Shown: piece after piece, positions 19,010-39,349 of the stretch | Numbering within the stretch: the stretch's first letter is position 1 | Layout of the letters: each line of letters opens with the position of its first letter | DNA from: Gammaproteobacteria bacterium | GTDB taxonomy: Bacteria; Pseudomonadota; Gammaproteobacteria; Steroidobacterales; Steroidobacteraceae | DNA length: 64,000 nucleotides | Direction: 5' to 3' | Assembly: GCA_030038755.1 (NCBI GenBank) | Contig: JASHSK010000221.1 | Location: 1,104 to 65,103 of the forward strand | Made by a program: the position numbers and the translations under genes | The notes under the pieces: model-generated | The model's input: only the letters and a program-made list of their open reading frames with translations | The model's database searches: none | Told to the model about the DNA's origin: nothing

Positions 19010-19857
19010 TGGCGATGGATACGCGACGTGAAGGTCAGTGGCGGCGGTGCGCCGCTCGCCGTGGCGGCAGGGCGCTCGTGTGCGGTCTGTCGGCCGCGCT
19101 GCTGGCGGTGTGCCAGGCTCCCGGCGTGCAGGCTCAGCAGCCGCGCGCTGCGACCAAGCCGCCGCCGACCGCGCGGGAGCAGGCGCCGTTCGATCCGACC
19201 GGATACTGGGTGTCGCTGATCACGCAAAACTGGCAGTACCGCATGGTCGTGCCGGGACCGGGCGAGTACGCCGACATCCCGATGAATCCGCAGGCGAGGA
19301 AGGCCGCCGACGCGTGGCGCGCGGCTGCCGCCACGGCGGCCGATCAGCAATGCGAGGCGTATGGTGCCGCCGTGATCATGCGCAACCCGGAGCGCCTGCA
19401 TATCAGCTGGCAGGACGATGAGACGCTGCGGGTGCAGATCGATGAAGGTATGCAGACGCGGTTGCTGCACTTCAAGCCGGCGTCGTCGGCAACGCCGCAG
19501 GCGCCGAGCCTGCAGGGCTATTCGACGGCGCACTGGATCGTCGATTCGACCGTCAACACCTTCGGAGCCCCCGTGCGGACGGACACGGGACAGCAGCACT
19601 ATGGGTCGCTGCGTGTGGACACGAACGACATGTTGCCCGGTCTGCTGCGCAAGAACGGCGTGCCCTATGGCGCCGACACGCAAATGAGCGAGTACTGGGA
19701 TCTGCGTGCGCTGTCATCCACGCAGCAATGGATCACGGTCAGCACCAAGGTGGAGGATCCGCAGTATCTGTTCCAGCCGTACGTATACGACTCGATCTTT
19801 CAGAAGGAGCCCGACGGCTCCAGGTGGGATCCGAGTCCCTGTTCTCTGACCTCGTGA
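19006..19857 (+). CDS. secreted protein of unknown function, family A (copy 2)
   Basis: The ATG overlaps the MBL-like stop (ATGA). Signal-like LVCGLSAALLAVCQAPGVQA. Same conserved blocks as 16035-16865. Confidence 0.7.
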   Translation: MMAMDTRREGQWRRCAARRGGRALVCGLSAALLAVCQAPGVQAQQPRAATKPPPTAREQAPFDPTGYWVSLITQNWQYRMVVPGPGEYADIPMNPQARKAADAWRAAAATAADQQCEAYGAAVIMRNPERLHISWQDDETLRVQIDEGMQTRLLHFKPASSATPQAPSLQGYSTAHWIVDSTVNTFGAPVRTDTGQQHYGSLRVDTNDMLPGLLRKNGVPYGADTQMSEYWDLRALSSTQQWITVSTKVEDPQYLFQPYVYDSIFQKEPDGSRWDPSPCSLTS

Positions 19858-19911
19858 GACCGCGGAGATCGACGCAGTACCCATGCAACCCGGAAGTCCG
19901 CGGAGCCGCCG

Positions 19912-20859: not shown

Positions 20860-20906
20860 GCTCGCCGCCGTGAGAACGGCGGCGTTGGAATCTGCGGGGG
20901 TTGCCG

Positions 20907-21848: not shown

Positions 21849-21869
21849 ATCGCGGGCACCGGGACCCGT

Positions 21870-23195
21870 ATGGCGCTGAGCCCCGAAGCACTGCAGTCCT
21901 GGTGGATGCCGTTCACGGCGAACCGCTACTTCAAGGCGCACCCGCGCCTGATCGTCGAAGCTCAAGGGGCCTACTACACGCTGGCCGATGGCCGCCGCGT
22001 GTTCGACTGCCTCTCGGGAATGTGGTGTACGCCGCTGGGCCACGCCCACCCGGGCGTCGTGCAGGCAGTGCAGCGTCAGGTGCAGAAGCTCGATTTCAGC
22101 CCGACTTTTCAGATCGGACATCCGGACGCGTTCGAGCTTGCCGCCCGGATCGCAGCTCTGGCGGGTCGCGAGCAGGACCGCGTGTTCTTCGTCAACTCCG
22201 GATCCGAGGCGGTCGATACCGCTCTGAAAGTCGCGATCGCCTATCACCGCGCGCGCGGCGAGGCAACGCGCACCCGTCTGATCGGCCGCGAGCGGGCGTA
22301 TCACGGCGTGGGCCTTGGCGGCCTGTCGGTCGGCGGCATCGGCGCCAACCGTAAAATGTTCACGTCGCTGATGCCGAGCGGCATCGACCATCTGCCACAC
22401 ACGTATTCACCGCGCGATATGGCCTTCACGCGCGGTCAACCTGACTGGGGGAAGCATCTTGCCGATGAGCTCGAGCGTCTGGTCGCCCTGCACGATGCCT
22501 CTACGATCGCGGCCGTCATCGTGGAGCCGGTGCAGGGCTCCACGGGTGTCATCGTCCCGCCGCGCGGCTACCTCGAGCGGCTGCGTGAAATCTGCACGCG
22601 CCACGGCATCCTGCTGATCTTCGACGAGGTGATCACGGGTCTGGGCCGGCTCGGCAGACCCTTCGCCGCGCAGTACTTCGGCGTGCGCCCCGATCTGATC
22701 ACGTTTGCCAAGGCGATCACCAACGGTGTCGTGCCGATGGGTGGCGTGCTGGTGAGCGCGGACATTTACGAAGCGTTCATGACCGGGCCCCCGCACGCGA
22801 TCGAGTTCTTCCACGGCCATACCTACTCGGGCCACCCGCTGGCCGTGGCGGCAGCGCATGCGTCGCTCGATGCGCTCACCGGGGAGGGTCTGATCGAGCG
22901 TGCGGCCGCGCTCGCGCCGCTGCTGGAGCGCGCCGCGCACGGTCTGCGTGGGGAGCCCCATGTGATCGACATCCGCAATATCGGACTGACTGCGGCCGTA
23001 GAGCTCGCGCCGTACACCGGTCAGCCGGGCGTCGTGGCGCTGCAGGTGTTCGAGCGCGCACTGTCCGAGGGGCTGCTGGTGCGCTACGCGGGGGACGTGA
23101 TCGAGCTCGCGCCGCCGTTCATCTCCACGGAGCAGCAGATCGAGTCGATGATCGAAGCGCTGCGACGCTGCCTGCGGGCGGTCCCTGCTGCCTGA
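21870..23195 (+). CDS. class III (omega-amino acid:pyruvate type) PLP aminotransferase
   Basis: WMPFTANR..F...PR.I..A.G.Y N-terminus typical of omega-transaminases. Also SGSEAVDTALK, LLIFDEVITGLGRLG and THGHTYSGHPLA. It starts 21 nt after the upstream stop. Confidence 0.88.
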   Translation: MALSPEALQSWWMPFTANRYFKAHPRLIVEAQGAYYTLADGRRVFDCLSGMWCTPLGHAHPGVVQAVQRQVQKLDFSPTFQIGHPDAFELAARIAALAGREQDRVFFVNSGSEAVDTALKVAIAYHRARGEATRTRLIGRERAYHGVGLGGLSVGGIGANRKMFTSLMPSGIDHLPHTYSPRDMAFTRGQPDWGKHLADELERLVALHDASTIAAVIVEPVQGSTGVIVPPRGYLERLREICTRHGILLIFDEVITGLGRLGRPFAAQYFGVRPDLITFAKAITNGVVPMGGVLVSADIYEAFMTGPPHAIEFFHGHTYSGHPLAVAAAHASLDALTGEGLIERAAALAPLLERAAHGLRGEPHVIDIRNIGLTAAVELAPYTGQPGVVALQVFERALSEGLLVRYAGDVIELAPPFISTEQQIESMIEALRRCLRAVPAA

Positions 23196-25232: not shown

Positions 25233-25325
25233 GAGTGAGAATGAGCGTCGCTCGCGGGGGGCGGCGGCGTAAAACATCATCGATAGGGATTCGCAGCGCC
25301 TGGTCGCCTCACGCGGAGAACAACC

Positions 25326-26930
25326 TTGTTTCATCAACTATTGACCCCCGTTCACGGCAATCTGCCGCTGTCGTTTCTCGTGGCGGTGATTCCGATCGCA
25401 ACCGTGCTGGTTCTATTGGGGATTCTCAAGCGGCCCGCGTGGCAGTCTTCTCTGGCGGGTCTCGCGGTCGCGTTCGGGGTCGCGATCGGAGTGTGGCGCT
25501 TCCCCGTCAACCTCGCCATCGAGAGCACCATCGCGGGTGTGGCCTTTGCGCTCTGGCCGATCATGTGGATCGTGTTCTCGGCCCTCGTGCTTTACAACGT
25601 CGCCATCATCTCCGGCCGATTCGACGCTTTCCGGCGCTGGGTCATCGAGCATCTGCCGAATGATCGGCGCATCATCCTCGTCGTCATCGGCTATTGCTTC
25701 GGCGCGCTGCTCGAAGGGGTCACCGGTTTCGGCGCGCCGGTGGCCATCATCAGCTCGCTGCTGATCATGCTCGGCTTCGACGCCCTCGATGCAATCGTCT
25801 ATGCGCTGATATTCAATACCGCACCGGTGGCGTTCGGCTCCATCGGGGTACCGGTCACCACGCTCGCCGGCGTCACGGGACTGCCGGATACGGTACTGGG
25901 CGCGATGATCGGCCGGCAGCTGCCGTTTCTTGCGTTCCTGCTGCCCTTCTATGCCATCGCGATGTATGGCGGGTGGCGCTCGGTGCGTGCGATCTGGCCG
26001 GTGCTGCTGGTCGCGGGCACGACCGGCGCGCTCGCTCAGTTCGTGACGGCAAATTACATCAGCTACCAGTTGACGAATATCGTGTCCTCGCTCGTTTCGC
26101 TGGCGCTGACGGTCGCTTTTCTGAAGGTGTGGAAGCCCGCTCACGATCCCGCCTATGCCGTAGCCGAGGCGCCGGCCACTCTCGAGAAGGCACATGCCCA
26201 CATTCCGGTATGGCAGGGGTGGATTCCGTGGCTGATCGTCGCCGTGGTCGTGACCTTGTGGACGACGTGGAAATTCGCCGCCTTTCATCAGATGAACCTG
26301 CCGTGGGCGGGTCTGCATGATGCCGTATTCATTACGCTGTACAAAAAGCCCTATGCCGCGGTGTTCAACTTCCAGCCGCTCACCACCGGGACCGCGATAC
26401 TGATATCGAGCATACTGACGGGGCTGGCGGTCGGAGTCGGCGTCAACGGCTACATACAGGCCATGGCCCGGACCTGGAAGCAGATCCGCCTGCCAACCTT
26501 CACGGTGACGGCGATCGTCGGCCTTGCCTTCCTGATGAACTATTCGGGCATCGCCTACACGCTCGGTCTCGGTGTGGCGTCCGTGGGCGCTCTGTTTCCG
26601 CTGTTGTCCGCCTTCCTCGGTTGGCTCGCGGTCTTTCTGTCGGGAAGCGACTCCTCGGGCAATGCGCTGTTCGGCAATCTGCAGGTCGTCGCGGCCCGAC
26701 AGCTCAATCTCAGCCCCATCCTCATCGCGGCCACCAATTCTTCGGGCGGAGTACTGGGTAAGATGATCTCGCCGCAAAACATCGCGACCGGCTGCGCGAC
26801 CAGCAATCTGACGGGCCATGAAGGCGCGATGTTTGCGCGCACGTTCCTGCACAGCGTCTTTCTCACCGTACTGCTCGGCTGTCTCGTCTGGCTGCAGCAA
26901 TACGTGTGGCCGTGGATGATCGCGAGCTAG
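25326..26930 (+). CDS. L-lactate/glycolate permease family (LctP) transporter
   Basis: 534 aa, many TM segments. N-terminal LSFLVAVIPI..VLLG.LKRPAW and the GFGAPVAI, SGSDSSGNALFG and NSSGGVLGKMISPQNIA blocks are characteristic of the LctP family. Apparent TTG start. Confidence 0.88.
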   Translation: MFHQLLTPVHGNLPLSFLVAVIPIATVLVLLGILKRPAWQSSLAGLAVAFGVAIGVWRFPVNLAIESTIAGVAFALWPIMWIVFSALVLYNVAIISGRFDAFRRWVIEHLPNDRRIILVVIGYCFGALLEGVTGFGAPVAIISSLLIMLGFDALDAIVYALIFNTAPVAFGSIGVPVTTLAGVTGLPDTVLGAMIGRQLPFLAFLLPFYAIAMYGGWRSVRAIWPVLLVAGTTGALAQFVTANYISYQLTNIVSSLVSLALTVAFLKVWKPAHDPAYAVAEAPATLEKAHAHIPVWQGWIPWLIVAVVVTLWTTWKFAAFHQMNLPWAGLHDAVFITLYKKPYAAVFNFQPLTTGTAILISSILTGLAVGVGVNGYIQAMARTWKQIRLPTFTVTAIVGLAFLMNYSGIAYTLGLGVASVGALFPLLSAFLGWLAVFLSGSDSSGNALFGNLQVVAARQLNLSPILIAATNSSGGVLGKMISPQNIATGCATSNLTGHEGAMFARTFLHSVFLTVLLGCLVWLQQYVWPWMIAS

Positions 26931-27040: not shown

Positions 27041-27502
27041 ATGAAGCGACTCTCCATATTGAGCTGCTCGTGCGCGCTGATGCTCACGGCGGCGCCGGTT
27101 CTGGCATCGGATCAGGACGTGATCCAATACCGGGAGGCCATCATGAATACACTCAATGAGGAGTCCGCAGCGCTCGGCCAGATCGCCTCGGGCGTCATCC
27201 CGGACGACAGTCTGGTGGCGCATATGAACATACTGGCGCTGGCCGCATCGGCTGGCGTCAAGGCGTTCCAGCCCAAAGTTCCCGGCGGTAAGGCGAAGCC
27301 CGATGTGTGGGCCAACTGGGCGGACTTCTCCAAGCGCATGAACGATTTCGCGCAAATGACGGCGGCGGGCGCCAAGGTCGCGAAGGATCAAGGCAAGGAC
27401 GCGGCCCTGGTGGCGCTGATCAATTACGCGGATGCCTGCAAGGGCTGTCACGATATGTATCGGCAGAATCAGAAGGGAGGCGGAGACAGCTCCGCCCAAT
27501 AG
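27041..27502 (+). CDS. cytochrome c' (class II, four-helix-bundle) family protein
   Basis: Signal peptide, ~150 aa, and a single haem motif near the C-terminus (ADACKGCHDMYRQ). Also VIQYREAIMN and KPDVWANWADF blocks. Confidence 0.8.
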   Translation: MKRLSILSCSCALMLTAAPVLASDQDVIQYREAIMNTLNEESAALGQIASGVIPDDSLVAHMNILALAASAGVKAFQPKVPGGKAKPDVWANWADFSKRMNDFAQMTAAGAKVAKDQGKDAALVALINYADACKGCHDMYRQNQKGGGDSSAQ

Positions 27503-27516: not shown

Positions 27517-27882
27517 TCAGGCGCTGAAGTGCAATACATGCCAGACGCCGCCCGCGCCGTCACGGGTGGGCCTGTCGGGTCTGTCGTGCAGGTACGTATA
27601 GACCGCATACCGCTCGAAGGCCCACTGGCGCCGGCCGTCCTTACGCACGAATATCGTCCACTCGCCCAGGGGTTTCTCGCCCGTGGGCGCCAACAGCGGA
27701 ATCCACTGCTTCTCGCACGTGCTATTGCAGGCGGTTTCGCCGGGCGAAGCGGATTCGTTGACGTACAGCGGCAGGTTCGAGGAGCTCTGCAGGAAGGTCC
27801 AGCCCATCCGGTCCTGCACGAGTGAAACCTCTGCAGGATAGGGCAGCTGCGTGTTCAACGATGTCGGAAGGCTCGCTCTCAA
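27517..27882 (-). CDS. COG4315 / PF03640-type 'secreted repeat' single-module protein
   Basis: PLYVNESASPGETACNSTCEKQWIPLLAP...EWTIFVRKDGRRQWAFERYAVYTY matches the repeat seen three times in 34011-35357. No obvious signal peptide in the available ORF. Confidence 0.55.
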   Translation of the reverse strand: MRASLPTSLNTQLPYPAEVSLVQDRMGWTFLQSSSNLPLYVNESASPGETACNSTCEKQWIPLLAPTGEKPLGEWTIFVRKDGRRQWAFERYAVYTYLHDRPDRPTRDGAGGVWHVLHFSA

Positions 27883-27960: not shown

Positions 27961-28449
27961 TTACTTTTGCATGTAGACGTCGTGGCAGCCCATGCAGCCA
28001 AGCGCCGCGACCTTGGAAGCAGTCGCCGTGACGTCACCTGACTTCGCGGCCTTGGCGAGATCATCGGTGCCGGCGACCAGCGCATCCAGCCGCCGGGAAA
28101 AATCAGCCCAGTTGGTCCAGACGTCCGGCTTGGACTTGCCGCCCGCGACATTGGGCATGAAGGCGCCCCTGGCGGTCGTGGCGGATATCGCGAGGATCTG
28201 CGTGAACGTGGCCAGGTCCTCCGGCGGTGCCTTTTTCTGCAGGATCTGGCTGATCAGTGTCATCTGAGCGCCCATCGTCTTCATGATGTGCTGGCGGTAA
28301 TCGATGACGTCCTGATCGTCGGCGCGTGCAATCGCCGGCAGCAGCGTGATCGCGAGCAATGCGGCGGCGCCAACCAGGGACGGCAGCAGGCGCTTCGCGG
28401 GACGGAACGCAGCGCCATGAGCACGCTGCAAAGCAAGACTTGCATACAC
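27961..28449 (-). CDS. cytochrome c' family protein (paralogue of 27041-27502)
   Basis: C-terminal LGCMGCHDVYMQK. VIDYRQHIMK and KPDVWTNWADF parallel the other copy. Signal peptide LLPSLVGAAALLAITLLPAIARA. The GTG at 28449 is preceded by gaggag; the ORF is open to 28611, so the start is uncertain. Confidence 0.75.
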   Translation of the reverse strand: MYASLALQRAHGAAFRPAKRLLPSLVGAAALLAITLLPAIARADDQDVIDYRQHIMKTMGAQMTLISQILQKKAPPEDLATFTQILAISATTARGAFMPNVAGGKSKPDVWTNWADFSRRLDALVAGTDDLAKAAKSGDVTATASKVAALGCMGCHDVYMQK

Positions 28450-28555
28450 GGGGCGTTCTCCTCGGGGAATCGGTACGCCTGTCAAGCGCCCTGCGCGCAT
28501 CAGCCGGCGCCTACACGATCTTTCGGGTTTCTCGTTCGGCTCCGGCCTGCGGGGC

Positions 28556-28873
28556 TCAGCTCTCTTTTGCGGTCCATGAATCGCAGTAGCCCGTCGCATA
28601 CGTGGGGCCATTGAGAATCATGCACATGCCGCAGCCCCCCGAAGTCGCGGTGAAGAACTGGCACATCGAGCAGCTTTTGTCCGAATGAGTGGACATGGCG
28701 GTCCAGTGCAACGAATTGCGTCCGGTCACGGCGTCCGCGCTCAGCGTCTTCGGATCGACGCAGGCGCTCTCGGCAGCATTCGCGGATTCGACGGCAACGG
28801 AGGCGAGCGCACCGCCGATTGAAATCTGAACGACTCGGGTAAGGAGTTTGCGCCGTGAAATCGACCTGCTCAT
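28556..28873 (-). CDS. high-potential iron-sulfur protein (HiPIP) with Tat signal
   Basis: Twin-arginine signal SRRKLLTRVVQISIGGALA. Cys pattern CSMC-x12-C-x12-C followed by DSW is typical of HiPIP. Strong RBS aaaggagg. Confidence 0.75.
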   Translation of the reverse strand: MSRSISRRKLLTRVVQISIGGALASVAVESANAAESACVDPKTLSADAVTGRNSLHWTAMSTHSDKSCSMCQFFTATSGGCGMCMILNGPTYATGYCDSWTAKES

Positions 28874-29202: not shown

Positions 29203-29272
29203 TCAGGTCCAACGGATCAGGTCCAGCAGATCAGGTCCGGCAGATCAGGTCCGGCAGATCAGGTCCGGCAGA
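29203..29272. repeat. 14-bp tandem repeat x5 (tcaggtccggcaga; first two copies degenerate)
   Basis: Read directly: tcaggtccaacgga, tcaggtccagcaga, then three perfect tcaggtccggcaga copies. The unit is not a multiple of 3. It lies in a 760-bp intergenic region. Confidence 0.9.
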
Positions 29273-29634
29273 TTTCCGACGGCATCGAACCCACCGACGC
29301 AGGAAGTCCCGATAGGTTCGCTCAAACGGGGCCTGGCCCCGAGCGGTCCGTGCCCATTGGCCCGCGCCAATCATCGATCTGCGCCGCAACGCATTGCGCG
29401 TCGCACGCGCGGTGTGATTCGCGCGCGGGCCATGCTGCTAAGCGGTTGAAAAACATCCAAATCCGAGCGCGATCAAAGGCCTGCGAGGCTCGAGGAAATC
29501 CACCGCCGTCGTGCTTCAGGTGCCGGCGATGGAGATTGTGGTTTTTGTGCAATCGTGAACTTGACGCTCCTCTTTGTGTCAACCTACGATGCTCGGTGCA
29601 CCAAGGCAGGGAGTGGGGTCCAGGGGGTTTTGCC

Positions 29635-30798
29635 ATGGGTGACTGGGTGGGGCTGTTCAAACCGAAACCGTTGTTTCCGTTGACGGTTGCGGGTATTTCG
29701 CTGGGTGCGATTCTATCGATTGCTCCGCTCCAAAGTGCGGCCGGCGGTGAGACGAGAAGCTATGTCCTGAGCTCCTTCACGAATGCGGCGTACTCGACCA
29801 AGGATGATTGCCAGGGCGGCATCGATCCGGATCAGACGGAACAATATAAGTTGGATCTGCTCGCGCTGGGCATGCCCCTCGAGAAGATCCAGAAGGTCAT
29901 GGACGGGTACCCGGGCTTTGCAACCATGGCCGTGCTGGTCAACCGCGGTCGCATCGACGGCAAGCCGGTCAATGCGTACACCAATCCGGCCTCCGCGATC
30001 GACCCGAAGCTTCACATGGTGACCGGTCACTACGCCTACGGCTTCAACCTCGATGGCAAGGGCGCCGATTCTCCGAATTCCTTCCAAGACCCGGCAACGC
30101 ATCAGTCAGGCATCGACAATCAGCTTTTCCGGGTATTCGGCTGTGCCAAGAATTTTCGCGGTCCGCCGGCCAATGCAACCCCCCCGATGTTTTATGGCAT
30201 CGAGTGGAGCACGCTGCGACCGTCGTTCCCCGCCTGGGTGATCACGATCACCGGGGATGATCTGAGCAGGGACGGACCGGTCACGGTGAGCATCGATCGA
30301 TCCATCGATCATGTGCTGCTCGATGCAGCCGGAAATACCGAGGCGTACACGACGTTCAGAATCGATCCGGCCCCGGGCTCGGTCAACGTTTTCCAGGGAC
30401 GACTGCAGAACGGAGTCGTGACGCTCACCGATCATCACGATCTTCATCTGGTCGGCGACCCGGTGCTGATCAGCGATCTGGATCTATCGCAGACCCATCT
30501 GCGGCTGACCCTGGAGCCCAATGGCGAGCTCGATGGTCTGGTGGGTGGCTATCAGCCATGGTGGGAGGTCTTCCTGCCCATCGGTCACGGGGGAGAGAAT
30601 TTCGAGGAAAACCAGGGAATCGACGTCCCCGGTCTGTACTACGCATTGAAGCACCTCGCTGACGCGGATCCCGATCCGAAGACGGGAGAAAATCGGCGCA
30701 TATCGGTCGCGTGGCAGCTGGAGGCGGTGCCCGCCTTCGTGGTGCCCGCGGAAGGCTACGCCCCGCCGGAACTGTCGGCCGCGAGTAACCCGAAATGA
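29635..30798 (+). CDS. secreted protein of unknown function (first gene of DUF1592/DUF1552 operon)
   Basis: The ATG at 29635 gives a signal peptide (LFPLTVAGISLGAILSIAPLQSAAG). GC3-rich. Its stop overlaps the next ATG (ATGA). No recognised motifs. The track ORF start at 29350 is an upstream extension. Confidence 0.6.
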   Translation: MGDWVGLFKPKPLFPLTVAGISLGAILSIAPLQSAAGGETRSYVLSSFTNAAYSTKDDCQGGIDPDQTEQYKLDLLALGMPLEKIQKVMDGYPGFATMAVLVNRGRIDGKPVNAYTNPASAIDPKLHMVTGHYAYGFNLDGKGADSPNSFQDPATHQSGIDNQLFRVFGCAKNFRGPPANATPPMFYGIEWSTLRPSFPAWVITITGDDLSRDGPVTVSIDRSIDHVLLDAAGNTEAYTTFRIDPAPGSVNVFQGRLQNGVVTLTDHHDLHLVGDPVLISDLDLSQTHLRLTLEPNGELDGLVGGYQPWWEVFLPIGHGGENFEENQGIDVPGLYYALKHLADADPDPKTGENRRISVAWQLEAVPAFVVPAEGYAPPELSAASNPK

Positions 30799-32612
30799 GC
30801 GACGCAACGGGCCAGGGCCCGGAGGTCCGAAGAATGGGCGAGCAGACGTCATCAGCCGGCGGCCGCGGCTGCGCCCGGGCGCTTTGCCTGGCCTCGGCAT
30901 CTGTGGCGATGGCGCTGGCGTGCGGCAGCGTGCAGGCAGCTCCCCCGAACCAGACATCCGTTGCCGTGGCATCCGAGCCTGCCGGTCCAACTGCAGCTAC
31001 CGGTCCCACTCAAGCGGCCGGTCCGGCGATGCTCAGGCGGCTGAGCCCGGACCAATACCGTCAGACCGTCGCGGATATCTTTGGGTCCGACATCACGATC
31101 GGAGGCCGGTTCGCGCCCGAAATACGCGCCAGCGGCCTGCTCGCGGTCGGTGCCGGCAACGAGAGCATCACCGGCGATGAGCTGGAACAGTACCACGCCA
31201 TGGCGCAGACCATCGCCGCCCAGGTCGTCGATCAGTCACACCGGGGCGTGCTGATACCGTGCACTCCGGAGGCCGCCTCGACCGCCGACGATCGCTGTGC
31301 CGGGAAATTCCTCGATGCGGTGGGCGAGCTGCTCTATCGGCGGCCCCTCACCAGGGACGAGCTGCAGGTTCAGGTTGGAATCGCCCATGCGGCTGCCGTG
31401 CAGGAGAAGGATTTCTATGCGGGGCTGCGCGAGAGCCTGGCCCAAATGCTGGTCTCCCCGGAATTCCTGTTCCGATGGTCCGACGTCAACGGCCCGCTGG
31501 GAGGGAAGGGATACTCAACGCTCGATGGCTATGCGCGGGCGGCGCAGCTGAGTTTCTTCCTGTGGAATTCAGCCCCCGACCAGACGCTGCTCAACGATGC
31601 CCGCCGCGGCCGGCTGAACTCGCCGAGGGGCCTGACTCGCGAGGTGAACCGCATGTTGGCGTCGCCGCGTGTGGAGGCCGGTGTGCGGGCATTCTTCTCC
31701 GACATGCTGCAGTTCTCCTGCGCCGAGGATCCGTGCCTGGACGCCAGTTTCTCGAAGGACAGCACCATTTATCCGCGCTTCACCCCTCAAGTGGCTGCCG
31801 ATGCGCAGGAACAGACGCTGCGGACGCTGGTGGATCTGCTGCTCACACACGACGGCGATTACCGCGACGTGTTCACCACCCCCAGGACATTTCTGACCCC
31901 GGATCTGGCCGCGGTCTACGGCGTGCCGCTGCCGCGCACCACGCCCAATGGCGAGCCGAGCAAGTGGCAGCCGTATATCTACCCGGCCGGCGACCCCAGG
32001 GCGGGAATTCTCTCCGAGGTCAGTTTCGTCGCGTTGCATTCGCACCCGGGCGTATCCTCGGCGGTGCTGCGAGGCAGAGCTCTGCGCGAGGTGATCCTGT
32101 GTGAGAAAGTGCCCGATCCGCCGCCGAACGTGAGCTTCAAGCTCGTTCTGGATACGACCAATCCCAAATACCCGACCATGCGTTCGCGGCTCGACGCTCA
32201 TATCACCAACCCGGTGTGTGCCGGCTGCCATCGACTGATGGACCCTCCCGGTCTGGCGATGGAGAATTTCAACGGCGATGGGAGTTTCCGCACGCGGGAA
32301 AATGGGGTTCTCATCGACGCGAGCGGCGCGCTGGACGGGAAGAAGTTCGATGGGATGCAGGGGCTCGATCAAACGGTCGCCAGCGATCCGGCGGCGCCTG
32401 CGTGCCTCGTGAGCCGCCTGGCGGAGTACGCGTTGGGCCGGGCCCCGGCCGGGGACGAAGTTCAGTGGGTCAAGCAGTTGAAGACGGATTTCATCGCCGA
32501 TCACTATCGCCTTCCCGCATTGCTGCGCGAGATCGCGACCAGTGACGAGCTTTATCGGGTCGAATGGAAGGGTGCCGCGGTGCATACCACGGTGGCATCC
32601 GCCGCGAAGTAG
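30795..32612 (+). CDS. DUF1587/DUF1592/DUF1595/DUF1588/DUF1585-type multidomain protein
   Basis: LRRLSPDQYRQTVADIFG (DUF1587-like) near the N-terminus. C-terminal CAGCHRLMDPPGLAMENFNGDGSFR and LAEYALGR blocks are typical of this family. Signal-like N-terminus. Confidence 0.7.
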   Translation: MSDATGQGPEVRRMGEQTSSAGGRGCARALCLASASVAMALACGSVQAAPPNQTSVAVASEPAGPTAATGPTQAAGPAMLRRLSPDQYRQTVADIFGSDITIGGRFAPEIRASGLLAVGAGNESITGDELEQYHAMAQTIAAQVVDQSHRGVLIPCTPEAASTADDRCAGKFLDAVGELLYRRPLTRDELQVQVGIAHAAAVQEKDFYAGLRESLAQMLVSPEFLFRWSDVNGPLGGKGYSTLDGYARAAQLSFFLWNSAPDQTLLNDARRGRLNSPRGLTREVNRMLASPRVEAGVRAFFSDMLQFSCAEDPCLDASFSKDSTIYPRFTPQVAADAQEQTLRTLVDLLLTHDGDYRDVFTTPRTFLTPDLAAVYGVPLPRTTPNGEPSKWQPYIYPAGDPRAGILSEVSFVALHSHPGVSSAVLRGRALREVILCEKVPDPPPNVSFKLVLDTTNPKYPTMRSRLDAHITNPVCAGCHRLMDPPGLAMENFNGDGSFRTRENGVLIDASGALDGKKFDGMQGLDQTVASDPAAPACLVSRLAEYALGRAPAGDEVQWVKQLKTDFIADHYRLPALLREIATSDELYRVEWKGAAVHTTVASAAK

Positions 32613-32659
32613 TCGTTCCGGGACACCGGGAATTCAGGCGGGTTTGGAGAGAGTGGCCA

Positions 32660-33991
32660 ATGAGTACCAAAGTCAATCGTAGGAGAGTGCTGCGCGGCAT
32701 GCTGGGCGGCGCGGCGATCAGCGTCGGGCTGCCGCTCCTGGATTGTTTCCTCAACGACAATGGCACCGCTCTCGCCGACGGGGCGCCGCTGCCGGTGTGC
32801 TTCGGTACGTGGTTCGCCGCCATGGGGTACAACCCGGGATTCTGGGAACCCACGCTGGTCGGGTCGCATTACGAGATGAAGCCCCAGCTGAAAGTGCTCG
32901 ATCCCTTCAAGGACAAGATCAACGTCTTCAGCGGCATGCAGACCTTCCTGGATGGGCGCCCATTGGCGACCCACGAGACGGGTGCACAGATCTGCACGAC
33001 GGGCTCGATCCCGGTAGGCCAGGATATCGACGTTCCGAGTATCGACCAGCTGGTCGCGGACACGATCGGGAGCAGGACGCGCTTCCGCTCGATAGAGGTG
33101 TCCTACGAGGGCGTTCCCTCGAGTTGGAGCCGCCGCAGCTCCAGCTCCGTGAACGCGTCGGAAGTGTCCCCGCTGGCGCTGTATCAGAAAATTTTCGGTC
33201 CGAGCTTCGTGGACCCGAATTCCGCGACTTTCACACCCGATCCGTCCGTCATGCTGGAGCGCAGTGTCCTGTCGACCGTTTCCGATCAGCGTGCCAGCCT
33301 CGTCAATAGCCTGGGGACAGCCGACCGGGCGCGTTTGGATGAGTACTTCACGTCGCTGCGTCAGCTCGAGCACGAGCTCGACGTGCAGCTGCAGAAACCG
33401 ATGCCGATGGTCGCCTGTTCGAAGCCCACGGCTCCTGGGGACGGGCCCCATGGCCAGGCCATTGACCTGGTGATGACGAACGGCAAGCTGTTCACGGGAC
33501 TCATTGCGCATGCGCTGGCGTGCGGCCAGACCCGTGTCTTCAACGCCGTTGGAACCATGGGGGCGTCGTCGGTGCATAAGGTCGGCAGCGAGGCCACCTT
33601 CCATATCGATACGCACGAAGAGCCGGTCGACGCGCAACTCGGCTATCAGCCCGAGGTCACCTGGTACATGGCGAGATTTTTGGACTGTTTCTCCGACCTG
33701 CTCACACAGCTGAACAGCGTTCGCGAGGGTCCGAGGACATTGCTGGACCGCACGGTCATCTACTGTTCGACCGATCACGGCTATGCGCGACTGCATACGC
33801 TGACGAACATTCCGCTGCTGACCGCGGGCGGCGCCAACGGCAAGCTGAAGACGGGCTATCACCTCACCGCACCGGGCGACACCGTCGCCCGGGTGGGGTT
33901 GACGGTCATGCAGGCGATCGGGCTGCCGCTCAGCAGCTGGGGAACGATGTCCAATCACACGACCAAGCCGTTCAGCGAGCTGCTCGCTTGA
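32660..33991 (+). CDS. DUF1552-family protein with twin-arginine signal
   Basis: MSTKVNRRRVLRGMLGGAAISVGLPLLDCF is the characteristic DUF1552 N-terminus. It is the usual genomic partner of DUF1592-type proteins. The track ORF start at 32564 is an extension. Confidence 0.7.
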   Translation: MSTKVNRRRVLRGMLGGAAISVGLPLLDCFLNDNGTALADGAPLPVCFGTWFAAMGYNPGFWEPTLVGSHYEMKPQLKVLDPFKDKINVFSGMQTFLDGRPLATHETGAQICTTGSIPVGQDIDVPSIDQLVADTIGSRTRFRSIEVSYEGVPSSWSRRSSSSVNASEVSPLALYQKIFGPSFVDPNSATFTPDPSVMLERSVLSTVSDQRASLVNSLGTADRARLDEYFTSLRQLEHELDVQLQKPMPMVACSKPTAPGDGPHGQAIDLVMTNGKLFTGLIAHALACGQTRVFNAVGTMGASSVHKVGSEATFHIDTHEEPVDAQLGYQPEVTWYMARFLDCFSDLLTQLNSVREGPRTLLDRTVIYCSTDHGYARLHTLTNIPLLTAGGANGKLKTGYHLTAPGDTVARVGLTVMQAIGLPLSSWGTMSNHTTKPFSELLA

Positions 33992-34010
33992 GGTGCCGGA
34001 GGAGCGGGTG

Positions 34011-35357
34011 ATGACACAGCGTGGAGCTGTCAAAGCGGGCGGCGTAGTCGCGCTGGCGGCAATCGGCACGTTCGGATGCGTGCTGCCCAGTCTGGCGGCA
34101 TCCGGCGATGTTGCAGTCGCAACGCCACCGGGTATCACGCTGCAACCACTGGGCAGAGCCCAGGGCTATGGAATGGAGGCGCTGCTCACCGAGGTGCCGC
34201 GAACGCAGATTGCGTTTGCGGACGCCGCGGGGATGACGCTTTATACCTACGACAAGGACTCGCGGGACCAGTCACGGTGCACCGGCGCCTGCGCGAAATT
34301 CTGGCGCCCCACGCTGGCGCCCCGTTCTGCGAGGCCGATTGGAGACTGGAGCACATTCAGACGTCCGGACGGCACGAGGCAATGGCAGTACAAGGGCGAG
34401 CCTGTCTATACATTCGTCCGCGACACCGACATCGGCTCGGTGTTCGGCATCAGCCCGCAGCACCTGCGTCAGTTCGTCGGGTATCTGGCGCGTCAGCGCG
34501 GGGGTGACGGCCCGCAGCAACCTTCGGGATGGCATCCGGCTCTGGTGTTTCCGGTGAGCGGTATCCCGATGCCGGAGGGCATCGCAATCAAGGAGGTCGG
34601 AGACGCCAACGGGCTGGCCCTCGTCAATCAGGAGGGTATGACGCTCTACGCCTATGAAGGGCGCGGAGGTGCGAGAGCGGTCGTGGGCCTGGCGGATCAG
34701 ACCCAGTGGAAGCCGCTGGCCGCCCCTGAACTGGCGCAACCCATCGGCGACTGGTCAATCATCGATAGAAGCGACGGCATCCGGCAGTGGACCTTCAGGG
34801 GTAAGCCGCTGTTTACGTTTGCCGGGGACCTGACTCCCGGTGACGCGAACGGCGTCGGCTTGAGCAAGGATTGGGATGCGGCGTTGGCGGTGTCGTTCTA
34901 CCTGCCGCCCGACGTCCGTTTTGAGCAGACCCTTGACCGCGGCAGGGTGCTGGCGACCGCGGCGGGTCTGACCCTGTATCGACGCGACGGCGTAGCCCTG
35001 GATACCGGAGGGGGTCAGAGTCTGCGACATGGCGTTCCGATCAGGCCGGGGATCGGCAGGAATATCGGAATCAGCGGCTGCGAGGGCGACTGCCTGAAGT
35101 CGTGGCATCCATTTTTGGCTCCTGCCAATGCTCAACCGGACGGCTACTGGGACAGCGTGGCGCGGCCGGATGGCACCCGGCAGTGGGTGTATCAGGGTTA
35201 CGCGTTGTATACGTACGCCGGTGATCAGAAGCCCGGGGACATGAACGGGAACGACATCTTCAACATGGTGTTGAGCGACAGCCCGGATCATGTGAACACC
35301 GTGGGTACGCCCATGCACGGCACCGCCGGTCTCTATTGGACGATAGCCTACCCCTAG
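34011..35357 (+). CDS. secreted protein with three COG4315/PF03640 double-repeat modules
   Basis: Signal peptide, then three modules. Examples: GMTLYTYDKDSRDQSRCTGACAKFWRPTLAP..DWSTFRRPDGTRQWQYKGEPVYTF, and GLTLYRRDG...CEGDCLKSWHPFLAP..RPDGTRQWVYQGYALYTY. RBS ggaggag lies before the ATG at 34011. Confidence 0.7.
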   Translation: MTQRGAVKAGGVVALAAIGTFGCVLPSLAASGDVAVATPPGITLQPLGRAQGYGMEALLTEVPRTQIAFADAAGMTLYTYDKDSRDQSRCTGACAKFWRPTLAPRSARPIGDWSTFRRPDGTRQWQYKGEPVYTFVRDTDIGSVFGISPQHLRQFVGYLARQRGGDGPQQPSGWHPALVFPVSGIPMPEGIAIKEVGDANGLALVNQEGMTLYAYEGRGGARAVVGLADQTQWKPLAAPELAQPIGDWSIIDRSDGIRQWTFRGKPLFTFAGDLTPGDANGVGLSKDWDAALAVSFYLPPDVRFEQTLDRGRVLATAAGLTLYRRDGVALDTGGGQSLRHGVPIRPGIGRNIGISGCEGDCLKSWHPFLAPANAQPDGYWDSVARPDGTRQWVYQGYALYTYAGDQKPGDMNGNDIFNMVLSDSPDHVNTVGTPMHGTAGLYWTIAYP

Positions 35358-35370: not shown

Positions 35371-36453
35371 TCACCGCGGTGCGAACTGCAGATAGCTGAT
35401 CTGATTTCCCCTGGCGTCGGTGAACCAGAGGCGGTTGACCAGCCGGGTCGGCGGCTGCCGGTCACTGCCGGCCGATAACCCCACCGCCAGTGCGCCGTCA
35501 CCGGCGGAAAACTCGGTGATTTCGCCGCGGGGCGTGACCCGACCGAGCTTGCCGCCGCGCGAATACCAGACGTTGCGGTCCGGTCCTACGGCGATGTTGA
35601 TCGGCGAGGGCCCCTGTGCAGGCATCGCAAATTCGGTGATCGACCCGCTCATCGTGATGCGGCCGATCCGCTTGCCGTTCGTGAACTGGCCGTCCATGCC
35701 TCCGGACAGCTCTACGAACCACATCGCCCCGTCCGCGCCCGCCGTGATGTCTCCCGGACCGGAATTCGGCCGTGGCAGGGTGAACTCGGTGACCCGGCCC
35801 TGGGGCGTGATGCGGCCAATCCTGTCGGTCCGGTACTCCGAAAACCAGATGTTGCCGTCGGGTCCCGCCGCGAGCGCCCGCGGACCGCTGTCTGGAGTCG
35901 GGATCGGGAACTCGCTGACGACACCCGCGGGTGTAACGCGACCGATCTTTCCGGCGGCGAACATACCAAACCAGATGTTGCCGTCGGCGCCCAGCGCGAT
36001 GGCGCGCGGCTGGCTGGCCGGCGTCGAAATGTCGAATTCGGAAATTGTTCCGTCCGGCGTGATGCGCCCCATGCGGTTGCCCGCATGCTCCGAGAACCAC
36101 ATGTTGCCGTCGGCGCCCCGTGCAATGATGCGCGGCGAGCTCGCCGGATGCGGCAGCTCGAACTCCACCAGGTGGCTGCCGTCCGGGTTCATGCGGCCGA
36201 TGCGGTTAGCGCTGCTTTCCGTGAACCACACGCGGCCGTCGGCCGCGATCGCGATCGTGGTGGGGGCGCTGCGCGCGTGGGGCAGTGGGAACGAGTGAAC
36301 CTGGCCGTCCGTCACCCATGAGGTGGAGCGTGACGAGAGCCAGTGCTGTGGAGCATCCGCCGCCAGTGCGACGGTCGCGGCGGCCACGACCGATGACGCC
36401 ATCACCGCGTGCCTCAGTAGTCTCGCGAGGCGTGGCCTGGGTCGCATCTTCAT
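35371..36453 (-). CDS. secreted seven-bladed beta-propeller protein, virginiamycin B lyase (Vgb)-like repeats
   Basis: Seven ~42-aa repeats of the pattern P..I..G.DGN.WF.E....RIGR.TP.G...EF..P. Signal peptide after MKMRPRPRLARLL. RBS gagagg lies before the ATG at 36453; the ORF is open to 36837. Confidence 0.7.
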   Translation of the reverse strand: MKMRPRPRLARLLRHAVMASSVVAAATVALAADAPQHWLSSRSTSWVTDGQVHSFPLPHARSAPTTIAIAADGRVWFTESSANRIGRMNPDGSHLVEFELPHPASSPRIIARGADGNMWFSEHAGNRMGRITPDGTISEFDISTPASQPRAIALGADGNIWFGMFAAGKIGRVTPAGVVSEFPIPTPDSGPRALAAGPDGNIWFSEYRTDRIGRITPQGRVTEFTLPRPNSGPGDITAGADGAMWFVELSGGMDGQFTNGKRIGRITMSGSITEFAMPAQGPSPINIAVGPDRNVWYSRGGKLGRVTPRGEITEFSAGDGALAVGLSAGSDRQPPTRLVNRLWFTDARGNQISYLQFAPR

Positions 36454-36784
36454 CTTGACCTCTCGAATCATGGGTTGGCGGTATCGGCCTTGTCCGATGA
36501 TCAGTGTAGTCGAATCCTTGCACGGAACTGCGCCGCTCGGGCACTGACTGTCAGCGAAGTCGTCCCGGAAAGTAGGACTCGTTCCAGATTGATTTGTATG
36601 CCGCGAGGCGGGGCCTTTTGTCCGATGCCGGTGGTATATAAGCCAACGCGGAATATACAGCACCGCCCGGTTCGATGCGGGCACACAACACAAGGGGGAC
36701 ATCAGCGAGGCTTCGCCAAATCCATGTAGCGTTGATGACAACCGTGCTGCCTTGGTTGTCGCCTGACGACATAGGGAGAATAAA

Positions 36785-39349
36785 GTGGCTGGAAAAAAAT
36801 TCAGAGCTTCAAGACTCAGTCTCAGGTCCTCGATCATCCTATCAGCGGCCGCGGGGTTGGCCGTGGCGGCATGGTTGCCGTCAGGCGTCCTGGCCCAGGC
36901 GGCCGGCGACGCGGCGGCACCGGCCGATGCTCAGGCCGGCCAGCAGGGCGCCGGGGATCAGACCGCACAGAGCGGGCAGAACAGCGCCGCCACGGGCACA
37001 CTGCAGGAAGTCGTGGTGACGGCCGAGAAGCGCGCCACCGACATTCAGACCACGCCGATCTCGATGGAGGCGATCTCGAGCAACACGCTGGAGTCGCAGA
37101 ATCAGAGGGAGATCATCGACCTGCAGACCACCGAGCCGGGTCTGCAGGTCTCCAACATCGGCCTGGCCTATACCGCCCCGAACATTCGCGGCATCGGCAA
37201 CGATCAGTTCTCCGTGGCCGAGACCCCGGGCGTCGCGACGATCCGGGACGGGCTGTTCCTGCAGGGCATCCACGACACGACCGATCCGTTCTTCGACATG
37301 AGCGATGTCGAAGTGCTGCGCGGCCCGCAGGGCGACTTCATCGGCTTCAGCTCCACCGGTGGCGCGATAGAGCTGAACTCGGCCAATCCGACCTTCAACG
37401 GCAACAATGGCTATCTGGAAATGGAGGTCGGCAATTACAGCGACAAGCGGATCGACGGCGCGCTGAACGCGCCGGTCACGGATACGTTCGCGGCGCGTCT
37501 GGCCTTCAACGAGGAGACGATGGGCAGTTTCTACCGCGATATCGGCTCGCTGGTGACCCCTGATTCTCCGGGCGGCAACGGTACCTTCCCCATACAGGAC
37601 CCGGGTTCGGTGGATGACAAGAACATGCGCCTGAGCCTGCTCTGGAAGCCGCTCGACAACTTCCAGGCGCTGCTGAAGATAGAGTACAACTCCTCGAACC
37701 CGGGGGCGCTCTCGGGAGAGCCCAATCAGGTTCCCTTCACCCTGCCGGCGAAAGCGATCGCCAACGGCTGTCCCGATGCGATCGCGCCCGGCGGCGTCAC
37801 GCCCGCCGGTCCCGGAGGCACCTGCTACTCGGAGTTCTATCCCTATTCCACGCATATCCCGTTCGTGATCAATTACGGCTGGGGCGGCGATTCCGCAGGC
37901 CAGGCGAGCTCGATCTACGAGCGGCTCCCGGCACTGGGAGAGCCGTTCACCGACTATCGTGACGGCCTGCATCTGCAGTACACGCTGCCCGACGGCATAC
38001 AGATCACGTCGATCACGGGTTTCCAGCAGCAACAGTGGAACGATCTGTCGTTGAGCTGTGCCTGCGACCTGGCGACTTCGGGCGTGGGCTACGAATACGT
38101 TCCAAAGGATGACTACTACAGCCAGGAGTTCGATTTCCTGTCGCCCAGCAGCGGGAAGTTCACCTGGATCGGCGGGGTGTCCTGGTTCGCGCGCTGGTCG
38201 GGGGTGGACGACACCAGCATCACCTCGACCTCGCCCTATTCACTGACAGACCCGGAGATCGTCGCGAGCAATACCCTCACGGTCCAGCGCATGGTGGGTG
38301 TGTTCTATCGGGCGAGCTATCAGTTCACGCCGGCGTGGCAGCTGCAGGTCGGGGTGCGCGATAACTGGGACAACAACTATGCGCGCGGGCCCATCGATCA
38401 GGTCGAGGAGAGCACGCTGAGCCCCACGACGCACCCGTGCACGGAAGCGCCCGCGCTGCTGGCGGGCTATGGCTGCGTGAACCTGCCGACCAACAGCGGA
38501 TTCAAGGACACGGTGCCGACCGGCAAGGTGACGCTGAACTGGAGTCCGGCGCAGGGGCAGTTCTTCTATGTGTTCTACGCGCGCGGCTACACCCCCGGCG
38601 GTTACGTCGCCGGCACGTCGGCACCCTACCTGCCCGAGCACGTCAGTGACTACGAGGTGGGCTGGAAGACGACGCAGCTCGACGGCCACCTGCAGGGCTC
38701 ACTGGGCGGTTACTGGATGATCTACCAGAACATGCAGCAGACCGTCTATGACACCAGTACCGGAACGTCCGGCACCGGCAACCTCGGCACCTCGCACCTC
38801 AGGGGCATCGAGACGACGTGGACCGTGCGCGAGGCAGGCTTCGGTCTCACCGTGACGGGCGCATTCGAGAAGTCGTCACTCGGCGCCATCACGACGGTTG
38901 CGACCTATGCGTTGCCAGGGTCGGCGGCGAACAAGGGGCAGTGCACGGGACCTGGCGGAACCACGGTGGGGCCCGGGCAGGCCAATTGCTTCAACTTCAA
39001 CCCGTACCTGGTGAACCTCTCCGGCGAGCCGAACCCGTTCGCACCCGAGTTCTCCGGTGGCGTGACGCTGGACTATGGCATTGCGCTCGGCGGCGGCACG
39101 CTCGATCCGAAGATCCAGTACAACTACACGGGGACGATGTATGGCTCGATTTTCCAGATCCCGTACTACGAGCTGGGCGCGCGCCGTCTGTGGAATGCAT
39201 ACCTCACGTACGATAAGGGCCAGTGGGACGCGGAGGCCTTCATAACGAACTTCACCAACCAGGTGTACATCTCGGGCGACTTCGGCGGCAGCGACGTCTA
39301 CTACGGCAACCCGATGCAGGTCGGCGTGCGCTTCCGCAAGGACTTCTAG
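36785..39349 (+). CDS. TonB-dependent receptor
   Basis: Signal peptide, Gln/Ala-rich linker, plug motif LQEVVVTAEKR..ISMEAIS, VEVLRGPQG, and a C-terminal ..VGVRFRKDF with terminal Phe. GTG start. Confidence 0.88.
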   Translation: MAGKKFRASRLSLRSSIILSAAAGLAVAAWLPSGVLAQAAGDAAAPADAQAGQQGAGDQTAQSGQNSAATGTLQEVVVTAEKRATDIQTTPISMEAISSNTLESQNQREIIDLQTTEPGLQVSNIGLAYTAPNIRGIGNDQFSVAETPGVATIRDGLFLQGIHDTTDPFFDMSDVEVLRGPQGDFIGFSSTGGAIELNSANPTFNGNNGYLEMEVGNYSDKRIDGALNAPVTDTFAARLAFNEETMGSFYRDIGSLVTPDSPGGNGTFPIQDPGSVDDKNMRLSLLWKPLDNFQALLKIEYNSSNPGALSGEPNQVPFTLPAKAIANGCPDAIAPGGVTPAGPGGTCYSEFYPYSTHIPFVINYGWGGDSAGQASSIYERLPALGEPFTDYRDGLHLQYTLPDGIQITSITGFQQQQWNDLSLSCACDLATSGVGYEYVPKDDYYSQEFDFLSPSSGKFTWIGGVSWFARWSGVDDTSITSTSPYSLTDPEIVASNTLTVQRMVGVFYRASYQFTPAWQLQVGVRDNWDNNYARGPIDQVEESTLSPTTHPCTEAPALLAGYGCVNLPTNSGFKDTVPTGKVTLNWSPAQGQFFYVFYARGYTPGGYVAGTSAPYLPEHVSDYEVGWKTTQLDGHLQGSLGGYWMIYQNMQQTVYDTSTGTSGTGNLGTSHLRGIETTWTVREAGFGLTVTGAFEKSSLGAITTVATYALPGSAANKGQCTGPGGTTVGPGQANCFNFNPYLVNLSGEPNPFAPEFSGGVTLDYGIALGGGTLDPKIQYNYTGTMYGSIFQIPYYELGARRLWNAYLTYDKGQWDAEAFITNFTNQVYISGDFGGSDVYYGNPMQVGVRFRKDF

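Follow-up and report, generated by a model that had tools for sequence, protein, structure and literature searches.

We analysed a 64,000-nt stretch of DNA from a Steroidobacteraceae genome (contig JASHSK010000221.1 of assembly GCA_030038755.1), hereafter the window, and focus on four genes, A to D, that lie co-directionally on its + strand at 29.6-35.4 kb. An earlier note, made from the letters alone, had described them as a tightly linked unit with predicted extracytoplasmic products. The four open reading frames (ORFs) lie where it placed them, all on the + strand, and the spacings of 47 nt between B and C and 19 nt between C and D are as it gave them. The genes, the promoter-like site before them and the motifs discussed below are as follows.

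29561-29590, + strand: sigma-70-type promoter-like site from a promoter scan (TTGACG, 18 nt, TACGAT), 45 nt upstream of the A start codon
29635-30798, + strand: gene A, 387 residues, exported, of an unannotated family; hub of the module
30834-32612, + strand: gene B, 592 residues from the likely start (longest ORF 30795-32612, 605 residues), a predicted Sec-exported monohaem protein of PSD3-PSD5-PSD4-PSCyt3-PSD2 (DUF1592-type) architecture
32217-32231, + strand: predicted haem-c attachment motif CAGCH of B (C475, C478 and H479 in the 605-residue numbering), inside PSCyt3
32660-33991, + strand: gene C, 443 residues, DUF1552 (HXXSHH), predicted to be exported by twin-arginine translocation (Tat)
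32675-32695, + strand: twin-arginine motif N-R-R-R-V-L-R of C, with R7 and R8 invariant in alignments of 53 and of 71 orthologues
33602-33796, + strand: putative metal-site residues of C, H315-I-D-T-H319-E-E followed by D372 and H379 (H105, D129 and H401 lie elsewhere in the gene)
34011-35357, + strand: gene D, 448 residues, exported, with three PF03640/COG4315 double modules
~34200-34448, 34593-34853 and 34941-35249, + strand: the three double modules of D

Purine-rich Shine-Dalgarno sites precede both C and D. For B, the earlier note had taken the ATGA at 30795-30798 as an overlap of the end of A with the start of B. The tetranucleotide is indeed present, at the end of A and the start of the longest B ORF, but it is probably not where B begins: the ATG at 30834 has a GGAGG Shine-Dalgarno sequence 9 nt upstream, and close B orthologues start at the equivalent MGKQM. 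For these reasons ATG 30834 is the most likely start, which leaves a 35-nt gap between A and B; in one orthologous locus (L001) the called B gene begins 34 nt past A. When the regions before A from five orthologous loci (L007-L011) are aligned, the -35 box ACTTGACG does not vary, and there is an A/T-rich -10. Because this promoter-like site is conserved at its position, a longer ORF for A, starting at GTG 29350, is ruled out. No terminator-like site breaks up the A-D unit, an Rfam scan found no RNA element within it, and the G+C content of the region is unremarkable. Upstream of A in 85 loci, matches to the Fur, Pho, FNR/CRP and extracytoplasmic function (ECF) promoter consensus sequences were not above those in shuffled controls. 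About 290 nt upstream of the A promoter lies a tandem repeat (29203-29273; 5.1 copies of the 14-bp unit TCAGGTCCAGCAGA, 94% matches), in a region that aligns poorly to orthologous loci, where a cytochrome c gene occupies the spot.

We then turn to conservation of the unit. Taking one genome per species, we found 240 relatives of A and analysed the best 79 loci, from about 41 assemblies, by running hidden Markov models built for A-D on all of their ORFs. The loci come from Steroidobacteraceae, Woeseiaceae, Rhodospirillaceae, other Alphaproteobacteria and metagenome-assembled genomes (MAGs) labelled Marinimicrobia; one cultured strain, Peristeroidobacter soli JW-3 (L052), is among these best 79. 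Of the A genes, 74 have enough sequence beyond them to be informative: B-C-D comes next in 62, D alone in 7, and 4 are solitary. The set is found in dozens of bacteria from soil and freshwater. The earlier note had proposed asking whether the flanking genes stay with DUF1592-DUF1552 pairs elsewhere, and they do: A and D are kept with the pair down to 40% A identity, within unrelated flanks. Such flanks surround A-B-C-D in L001 (A identity 78%) and L006 (46%) and A-B-C-C-D in L004 (47%), and a divergent subtype has the order (B-C-)D-A. Since B-C-D follows A in 62 of 74 cases, the four-gene linkage is far beyond chance. Genomes often carry several copies of the module, with up to six loci in one MAG. 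A Rhodospirillaceae MAG (L022) has three complete modules head to tail within 21 kb, one of the divergent D-A type, in what looks like a tandem array of paralogues.

The four proteins also diverge together. Across 56 complete modules, pairwise identities are correlated between the A-D proteins (0.74-0.90), and correlations among divergent paralogues are 0.62 for A-D, 0.53 for A-C and 0.43 for B-C; median pairwise identity is 43% for both A and D, 56% for B and 54% for C. Moreover, an A profile search with Pfam typing found natural fusions of A to B (P0361, 933 residues; P0364, 963 residues) and of A to D (P0378, P0390, P0395, P0404 and P0421; 723-813 residues), the second moiety lacking a signal peptide of its own in each kind. 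One A::B fusion sits in a locus of the form [A::B]-C-D (L086), and the A::D fusion P0395 was found on 4 contigs. By these natural fusions A is coupled to B and to D, and we argue from them that it contacts both. All four proteins carry an N-terminal hydrophobic export signal that is conserved among orthologues, in keeping with the extracytoplasmic location that had been predicted for them. Thus A-B-C-D is one conserved, co-evolving module of exported proteins, and the earlier suggestion of a single uncharacterised periplasmic system finds support in about 60 conserved loci, in the fusions and in co-evolution. That the genes have no common function and are mere neighbours in this genome deserves almost no credence: the set persists in 62 of 74 loci although their flanks are unrelated, the fusions and the correlated divergence speak against it, and paralogous copies share the same composition.

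Neither Pfam nor NCBIfam gives a match for protein A, including in a permissive scan up to E = 10. The earlier note could not place this protein, and no known family claims it, but it is not an orphan: a word-indexed search returned 632 homologues, and an A profile has matches in 1,060 representative clusters (50% identity) from a set of 1.84 billion proteins. By these sequence matches A is the founder of an unannotated family of about 1,000 clusters. Its N-terminus is a predicted signal peptide (…ILSIAPLQSA/AGG), and orthologue alignments show C59 and C170 to be invariant, together with many Arg, Asp, Trp and Gly residues. An AlphaFold2 (AF2) model built from 63 sequences is confident (predicted local distance difference test score, pLDDT, 87.8; predicted template-modelling score, pTM, 0.83). 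Foldseek found no significant fold match for it in the PDB (best E 0.029, template-modelling (TM) score 0.14), and searches of the PDB by sequence and by profile gave nothing significant. The weak Foldseek matches (E >= 0.38) are mostly small closed beta-barrels, namely TbpB, lipocalin, nitrobindin and NanoLuc, which we treat as a lead only.

At the other end of the unit, D matches PF03640 (E 3.5e-45, 151.7 bits) and has the three double modules that the earlier note had described. CxxxC pairs are present in modules 1 and 3 (C90/C94 and C357/C361) and missing from module 2, also as described; in an alignment of 48 orthologues, distant relatives have a Cys pair in module 2 too. Three Yx[FWY]xxD motifs lie at residues 78, 133 and 400. 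We considered D as a lipoprotein and rejected this because the signal-peptide Cys (C23) is not conserved among orthologues; by its sequence D appears to be a soluble exported protein. It was also rejected as an SCO0930 equivalog (NF040526), scoring 133.9 bits against a cut-off of 275, and searches of the PDB by sequence and profile found no relative.

The two inner genes belong to known domain families, and the domain calls made for them beforehand all held in Pfam. In B, the order is PSD3/DUF1587 (36.0 bits), PSD5/DUF1595 (51.2), PSD4/DUF1592 (102.8), PSCyt3/DUF1588 (90.0) and PSD2/DUF1585 (44.8), all above gathering scores of 23-34, followed by a weak C-terminal DUF1800 match that is below the cut-off (E 0.0037). 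A DUF1552 gene lies directly downstream of B in the window and in the orthologous loci that we looked up. B has a predicted Sec-type signal peptide ending VQA/AP, and the signal is of Sec type in all orthologues; a lipoprotein assignment was rejected, as no lipobox is conserved among them. At least 95% of 70 orthologues keep the CxxCH motif, which shows no variation in an alignment of 33, so that B carries a conserved, predicted haem-c attachment site. H469 and the Cys pairs C156/C168 and C436/C537 are likewise at least 95% conserved in the 70 orthologues, and no Met is conserved among the aligned orthologues. Sequence and profile searches of the PDB with B gave nothing significant, and no similarity to cytochrome c peroxidases was seen.

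Protein C matches PF07586 (DUF1552) with E 2e-39 and 136.3 bits against a cut-off of 30. It starts MSTKVNRRRVLRG, and its N-terminal region, NRRRVLRGMLGGAAISVGLPLL, has a twin arginine followed by a hydrophobic stretch. With both arginines invariant in 71 orthologues, the twin-arginine signal noted earlier is well founded, and C is a predicted Tat substrate. Its AF2 model (pLDDT 82.4, pTM 0.78) was compared with the PDB by Foldseek, and the top 50 matches all belong to the alkaline-phosphatase superfamily, with probability 0.9-1.0 for most. The best is choline sulfatase (6fny; E 1e-4, probability 1.0, TM score 0.40), and others include phosphonate monoester hydrolases, LtaP, sulfamidase, iPGM and phosphopentomutase. 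As modelled, then, C has the alkaline-phosphatase-superfamily fold. Residues H105, D129, H315, H319 with the two Glu after it, D372, H379 and H401 are invariant or at least 95% conserved in orthologue alignments. At the HxxSHH position, C has H315-I-D-T-H319-E, whose first and fifth positions are invariant; in the subfamily, an invariant Glu takes the place of the last His. Judged by residue conservation and fold, these residues may form a metal site. C has no CxPxR/SxPxR formylglycine motif and was rejected as a formylglycine sulfatase on that ground; alignment and model show no conserved Asp after the first core strand (47-53). Searches of the PDB by sequence and family profile found nothing significant for C, and a permissive Pfam scan added nothing.

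The fold of C raises the question of whether the system is purely hydrolytic, with C a phospho- or sulfo-ester hydrolase or transferase that would release phosphate, sulfate or a blocking group from esters imported by TonB-dependent receptors. B would then be a substrate-binding or structural protein whose haem takes no part in electron transfer, with A and D serving as binding proteins. PhoD and PhoX are well-established cases of metal-loaded phosphatases exported by Tat. Among the fold matches of C, sulfatases, phosphonate monoester hydrolases and phosphomutases rank best, and its (D/H)xxxH ... D ... H pattern recalls the metal sites of alkaline phosphatases. PSCyt genes of Verrucomicrobia, in turn, adjoin sulfatases and carry carbohydrate-binding modules (PMC5615132). 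Nevertheless, we find this explanation unlikely, given that C has neither the formylglycine motif nor an identifiable nucleophile, that the Pho box is not enriched upstream of A, and that the strictly conserved CxxCH and the cytochrome genes retained nearby (see below) are hard to account for without redox chemistry.

The haem of B admits another role, that of a maturase. Instead of carrying electrons in the steady state, B would then act on C, A or D once they are exported, as a haem enzyme of the MauG/MbnH kind, and generate in them a protein-derived cofactor such as an oxidised Cys, Ser or Trp. Sulfatases of the alkaline-phosphatase superfamily require an oxidatively generated residue, B and C are paired strictly one to one and co-evolve, and the lack of a conserved Met ligand in B would allow an open or His-ligated catalytic haem. 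However, B has one haem where MauG and MbnH have two and resembles cytochrome c peroxidases neither in sequence nor in profile searches, C offers no conserved Cys or Ser within a formylglycine-type motif, and Tat substrates are normally exported already mature. We therefore consider a maturase very unlikely.

The surroundings of the module bear on what it acts on. Only TonB-dependent receptors recur widely beside it. Their share of the called genes falls with distance, from 22% in the first 400 bp to 15% at 0.4-1.5 kb, about 9% at 1.5-5 kb and 3% beyond 5 kb, and a receptor is the immediate neighbour in 20 of 77 loci, usually upstream and co-oriented. The adjacent receptors are mostly about 1,000 residues long and lack the STN signalling domain. 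One cluster of about 1,040 residues next to HlyD was first counted with them and is more likely a resistance-nodulation-division (RND) pump. Five genes around the module in the window are relevant here.

27041-27502, + strand: class II cytochrome c (c'/c556 family) with a C-terminal CKGCH (PF01322, E 2e-19)
27517-27882, - strand: small single-module PF03640 protein, 121 residues, with CxxxC (PF03640, E 5e-10)
27961-28611, - strand: second class II cytochrome c (PF01322, E 4e-17), given as the maximal ORF, the true start being probably further downstream
35371-36462, - strand: exported Vgb-lyase/SGL-type beta-propeller, convergent with D (PF24684, E 2e-107; PF08450 SGL, E 7e-11)
36785-39349, + strand: TonB-dependent receptor, 1.4 kb downstream of D, with a Plug domain and weak TonB-receptor NCBIfam matches

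The receptor at 36785-39349 is suggested to belong to the module's system. The other four have orthologues (52-83% identity) around the module in L001 and L008-L011, arranged differently from the genes of the window, with the propeller and one cytochrome directly upstream of A. The propeller orthologues (80-83% identity) thus lie beside the module upstream of A, those of the second cytochrome have 69-76% identity, and those of the small PF03640 protein, near the module, have 52-62%. The orthologue of the first cytochrome is directly upstream of A in L007-L011. A beta-propeller of the NHL type is found directly upstream of A in seven further loci (L019, L026, L036, L043, L044, L052 and L068) and also in an A::D fusion locus. 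We also observe that the PF03640 gene with CxxxC comes 78 nt after the second cytochrome gene (27961-28611, - strand) and in the same orientation, which makes a second, minimal pairing of a c-type cytochrome with PF03640.

Also recurrent are ECF sigma genes, present in 8 loci, some major facilitator superfamily genes and lineage-specific genes. No coherent catabolic pathway was seen among the clustered neighbours. One cellulase adjoins the solitary A gene of L002. Directly upstream of an A::D fusion lies a gene for a HupE_UreJ_2 (Ni/Co-permease-like) membrane protein of 457 residues with a long N-terminal extracytoplasmic part (L087, 1527-2900), and a related segment is found upstream of A in L042 (3739-4176).

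These neighbours could be read as pointing to metal acquisition or homeostasis, in which a metal or chelate (Fe, Ni, Co or Cu) would arrive from the TonB-dependent receptor, be reduced through the haem of B and released by C, and be bound or buffered by the CxxxC pairs of D and the Cys pair of A. The enrichment of TonB-dependent receptors, the ECF sigma genes in 8 loci, the HupE_UreJ_2 gene and its related segment in L042, and the conserved CxxxC pairs of D would all fit. What makes it quite unlikely in our view is the lack of Fur-box enrichment upstream of A, the lack of an STN domain in the adjacent receptors, unlike typical siderophore transducers, the loss, within the clade of the window, of the CxxxC in module 2 of D, and the restriction of HupE-like genes to 2-3 loci.

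The reading that we favour, tentatively and in the knowledge that it may well prove wrong, is that A-B-C-D is a cytochrome-wired periplasmic enzyme complex that processes substrates imported by TonB-dependent receptors. C would fold in the cytoplasm, where it would probably also take up its metal, before export by Tat, while B would be exported by Sec and receive its haem in the periplasm. Together they would form a slowly evolving catalytic core, as their median paralogue identity of 54-56%, the higher of the two pairs, suggests; the metal centre of C would act on the substrate, by oxidation, reduction or transfer of a phospho or sulfo group, and the haem of B would link the reaction to soluble periplasmic c-type cytochromes, which in the window's clade would be the neighbouring class II cytochromes c. 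A would dock onto B and D. With their faster divergence (median 43%) and the strongest covariation, A and D would probably supply ligand capture and specificity, and an A-D adaptor could also act without B-C. Substrates would arrive through TonB-dependent receptors, sometimes with a beta-propeller enzyme involved, and each paralogous copy in a genome would serve a different substrate. In favour of this reading are the operon structure with its single conserved promoter, the synteny, the fusions, the correlated divergence, the conserved CxxCH and twin arginines, the modelled fold of C, the enrichment of TonB-dependent receptors, the class II cytochromes c and beta-propeller that stay beside the module despite rearrangement, and the NHL propellers upstream of A. 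Secreted redox proteins of cellulolytic bacteria, described below, likewise join c-type cytochrome domains, an SGL propeller and a DUF1587-X132 region with one CxxCH (PMC8981238, PMC10916295).

Several observations weigh against the cytochrome-wired complex. Without a formylglycine motif or an obvious Asp at the end of beta-strand 1, C may be catalytically unlike its structural relatives, or not an enzyme. No sixth haem ligand can be assigned in B from its sequence, so that electron transfer, catalysis and sensing are all possible for it, and we know of no alkaline-phosphatase-superfamily enzyme with a redox partner. As A-D pairs occur without B-C, A and D must have a function that is independent of the proposed core. 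The link to TonB-dependent receptors is missing from about 60% of loci, and in the window itself the nearest receptor lies outside the operon, behind a convergent gene. Other neighbours are mixed (amidase, amidohydrolase, beta-lactamase-family, glyoxalase, catalase and CoA-transferase genes), and no glycoside hydrolase is found among the recurrent neighbours or among the annotated window genes at about 8.8-51.9 kb; with neighbours so heterogeneous, no substrate class emerges. Lastly, our literature search found no functional study of DUF1552, the DUF1587-1595 set, PF03640 or COG4315.

A more specific proposal is that the module represents a new class of periplasmic redox enzyme, in which an alkaline-phosphatase-fold metal centre (C) is wired through the covalently bound haem of B to the soluble cytochrome c pool, A, with its previously unseen fold, and D serve as exchangeable recognition subunits, and each copy oxidises or reduces a different TonB-imported compound. 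We think this unlikely. If true, it would provide the first function for the PSCyt/DUF1552 expansions of Planctomycetes and Verrucomicrobia and for the X132 region of Cbp2D-type proteins (discussed below).

The pairing of B with C was already known, though uncharacterised. What appears to be new is the four-gene module, the A family, the A::B and A::D fusions, the minimal A-D pair and the links to TonB-dependent receptors, cytochromes and propellers. Of these features, the association with TonB-dependent receptors and the accessory class II cytochromes c and beta-propellers go beyond the earlier note, as do the CxxCH of B and the predicted alkaline-phosphatase fold of C. Few gene families of Planctomycetes and Verrucomicrobia that still lack an explanation are as large as those of the PSCyt/PSD haem proteins and their DUF1552/DUF1501 partners, which papers describe as intriguing. 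The locus described here is a compact, four-component proteobacterial version, in which the partners are clear, Rosetta-stone fusions define binding pairs, accessory cytochromes suggest an electron path and TonB-dependent import is linked. A adds a new family without a solved structural relative, and the module gives PF03640 repeat proteins a first context. All this, together with its presence in the cultured Peristeroidobacter soli JW-3, makes the role of the module directly accessible to genetics and biochemistry.

Other parts of the window drew our attention in passing. An L-lactate permease gene (25287-26927, + strand) lies 2.7 kb upstream of the module, and this permease gene is found near the module in L001 too; a 1,014-residue fusion of a flavin adenine dinucleotide (FAD)-linked oxidase with 4Fe-4S dicluster and CCG domains, resembling glycolate/D-lactate dehydrogenase, is encoded at 44361-47402 (- strand). 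A further TonB-dependent receptor gene (13274-15946, + strand) is split by a single in-frame TAG (15308-15310) into a part with the Plug and the start of the barrel (13274-15307) and a part in the same frame with the end of the barrel (15311-15946); it could be a pseudogene, a sequencing error or a case of read-through. At 17852-21845 (+ strand), four consecutive ORFs (385, 283, 333 and 324 residues) have coding-like G+C content at third codon positions (GC3) and no Pfam match, and are directly followed by a class III aminotransferase gene (21849-23192); they may be another uncharacterised operon. Finally, a very long ORF (1-4293, + strand; at least 1,431 residues, GC3 0.93) runs off the start of the window.

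How does the module compare with known systems? In export logic and subunit roles, it matches the sulfite dehydrogenase SorAB and the Sox system, the latter comprising the hydrolase SoxB, the cytochromes SoxXA and the carrier SoxYZ: one operon encodes an enzyme that Tat exports with its cofactor in place, a partner with haem c and accessory proteins for binding. The analogy is functional only, as there is no sequence or fold relationship, and C shows no signature of molybdopterin, of Fe-S or of a dimanganese phosphoesterase. The C model finds its best fold matches among type I sulfatases and phosphonate monoester hydrolases, at TM scores of 0.35-0.40 and 9-12% identity; C differs from them in having no profile match in the PDB, no CxPxR and, in the model, a large helical insertion at about residues 195-290. 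Another comparison is with loci linked to TonB-dependent receptors, of the type of carbohydrate utilisation systems containing TonB-dependent receptors (CUT) and polysaccharide utilisation loci (PUL), in Proteobacteria and Bacteroidota. Like these, the module occurs as many paralogues per genome, and a receptor adjoins it in about a quarter of loci; unlike them, it has no glycoside hydrolases, SusD-like proteins or inner-membrane sugar transporters conserved with it.

Closer in composition are the gene pairs of DUF1800 and DUF1501, in which an exported alpha-helical protein is partnered with a Tat-signal alkaline-phosphatase-like protein, and which are also uncharacterised. The pairing logic is that of B and C, and the C-terminus of B has its weak match to DUF1800, but the Pfam families differ from those of B and C and, unlike B, DUF1800 proteins are not known to have a CxxCH motif. 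The pairs of PSCyt3/PSD proteins with DUF1552 in Planctomycetes and Verrucomicrobia are closer still: B and C genuinely belong to the two Pfam families, and they are adjacent and in the same order. Here, B-C is embedded between A, of a new family, and D, with its triple PF03640 modules; A can be fused to B or D, A-D alone is possible, the genomes are of the proteobacterial type, and there is a link to TonB-dependent receptors. In those earlier-known genomes, PSCyt3 genes adjoin a conserved family of unknown function and some PSCyt proteins carry carbohydrate-binding modules, their function being stated as entirely unknown (He et al., 2017; PMC5615132).

The only relatives with experimental data are secreted redox proteins of cellulolytic bacteria, which combine the same kinds of parts as the genes here. 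In Cellvibrio japonicus, Cbp2D has the architecture CBM2-X158-FN3-X183(cytochrome c)-DUF1587-X132, where X132 is long and contains a single CxxCH (Branch et al., 2021; PMC8981238); it is important for growth on insoluble cellulose, and cbp2D mutants are impaired (PMC12542752). NCBI gives the name DUF1592 protein to a CBM2-bearing Cellvibrio protein that was found on lignocellulose (PMC6004670). In Teredinibacter turnerae, TERTU_3803 and TERTU_2913 have X132, described as without a characterised homologue, together with X183 cytochromes, and TERTU_3803 also has a pf08450 (SGL) propeller (PMC10916295). Unlike the module, the Cbp2D and TERTU proteins are single secreted polypeptides tagged with carbohydrate-binding modules, for which no DUF1552, A or D partner has been reported. 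Going by annotations alone, X132 would correspond to the PSD5-PSD4-PSCyt3-PSD2 region of B.

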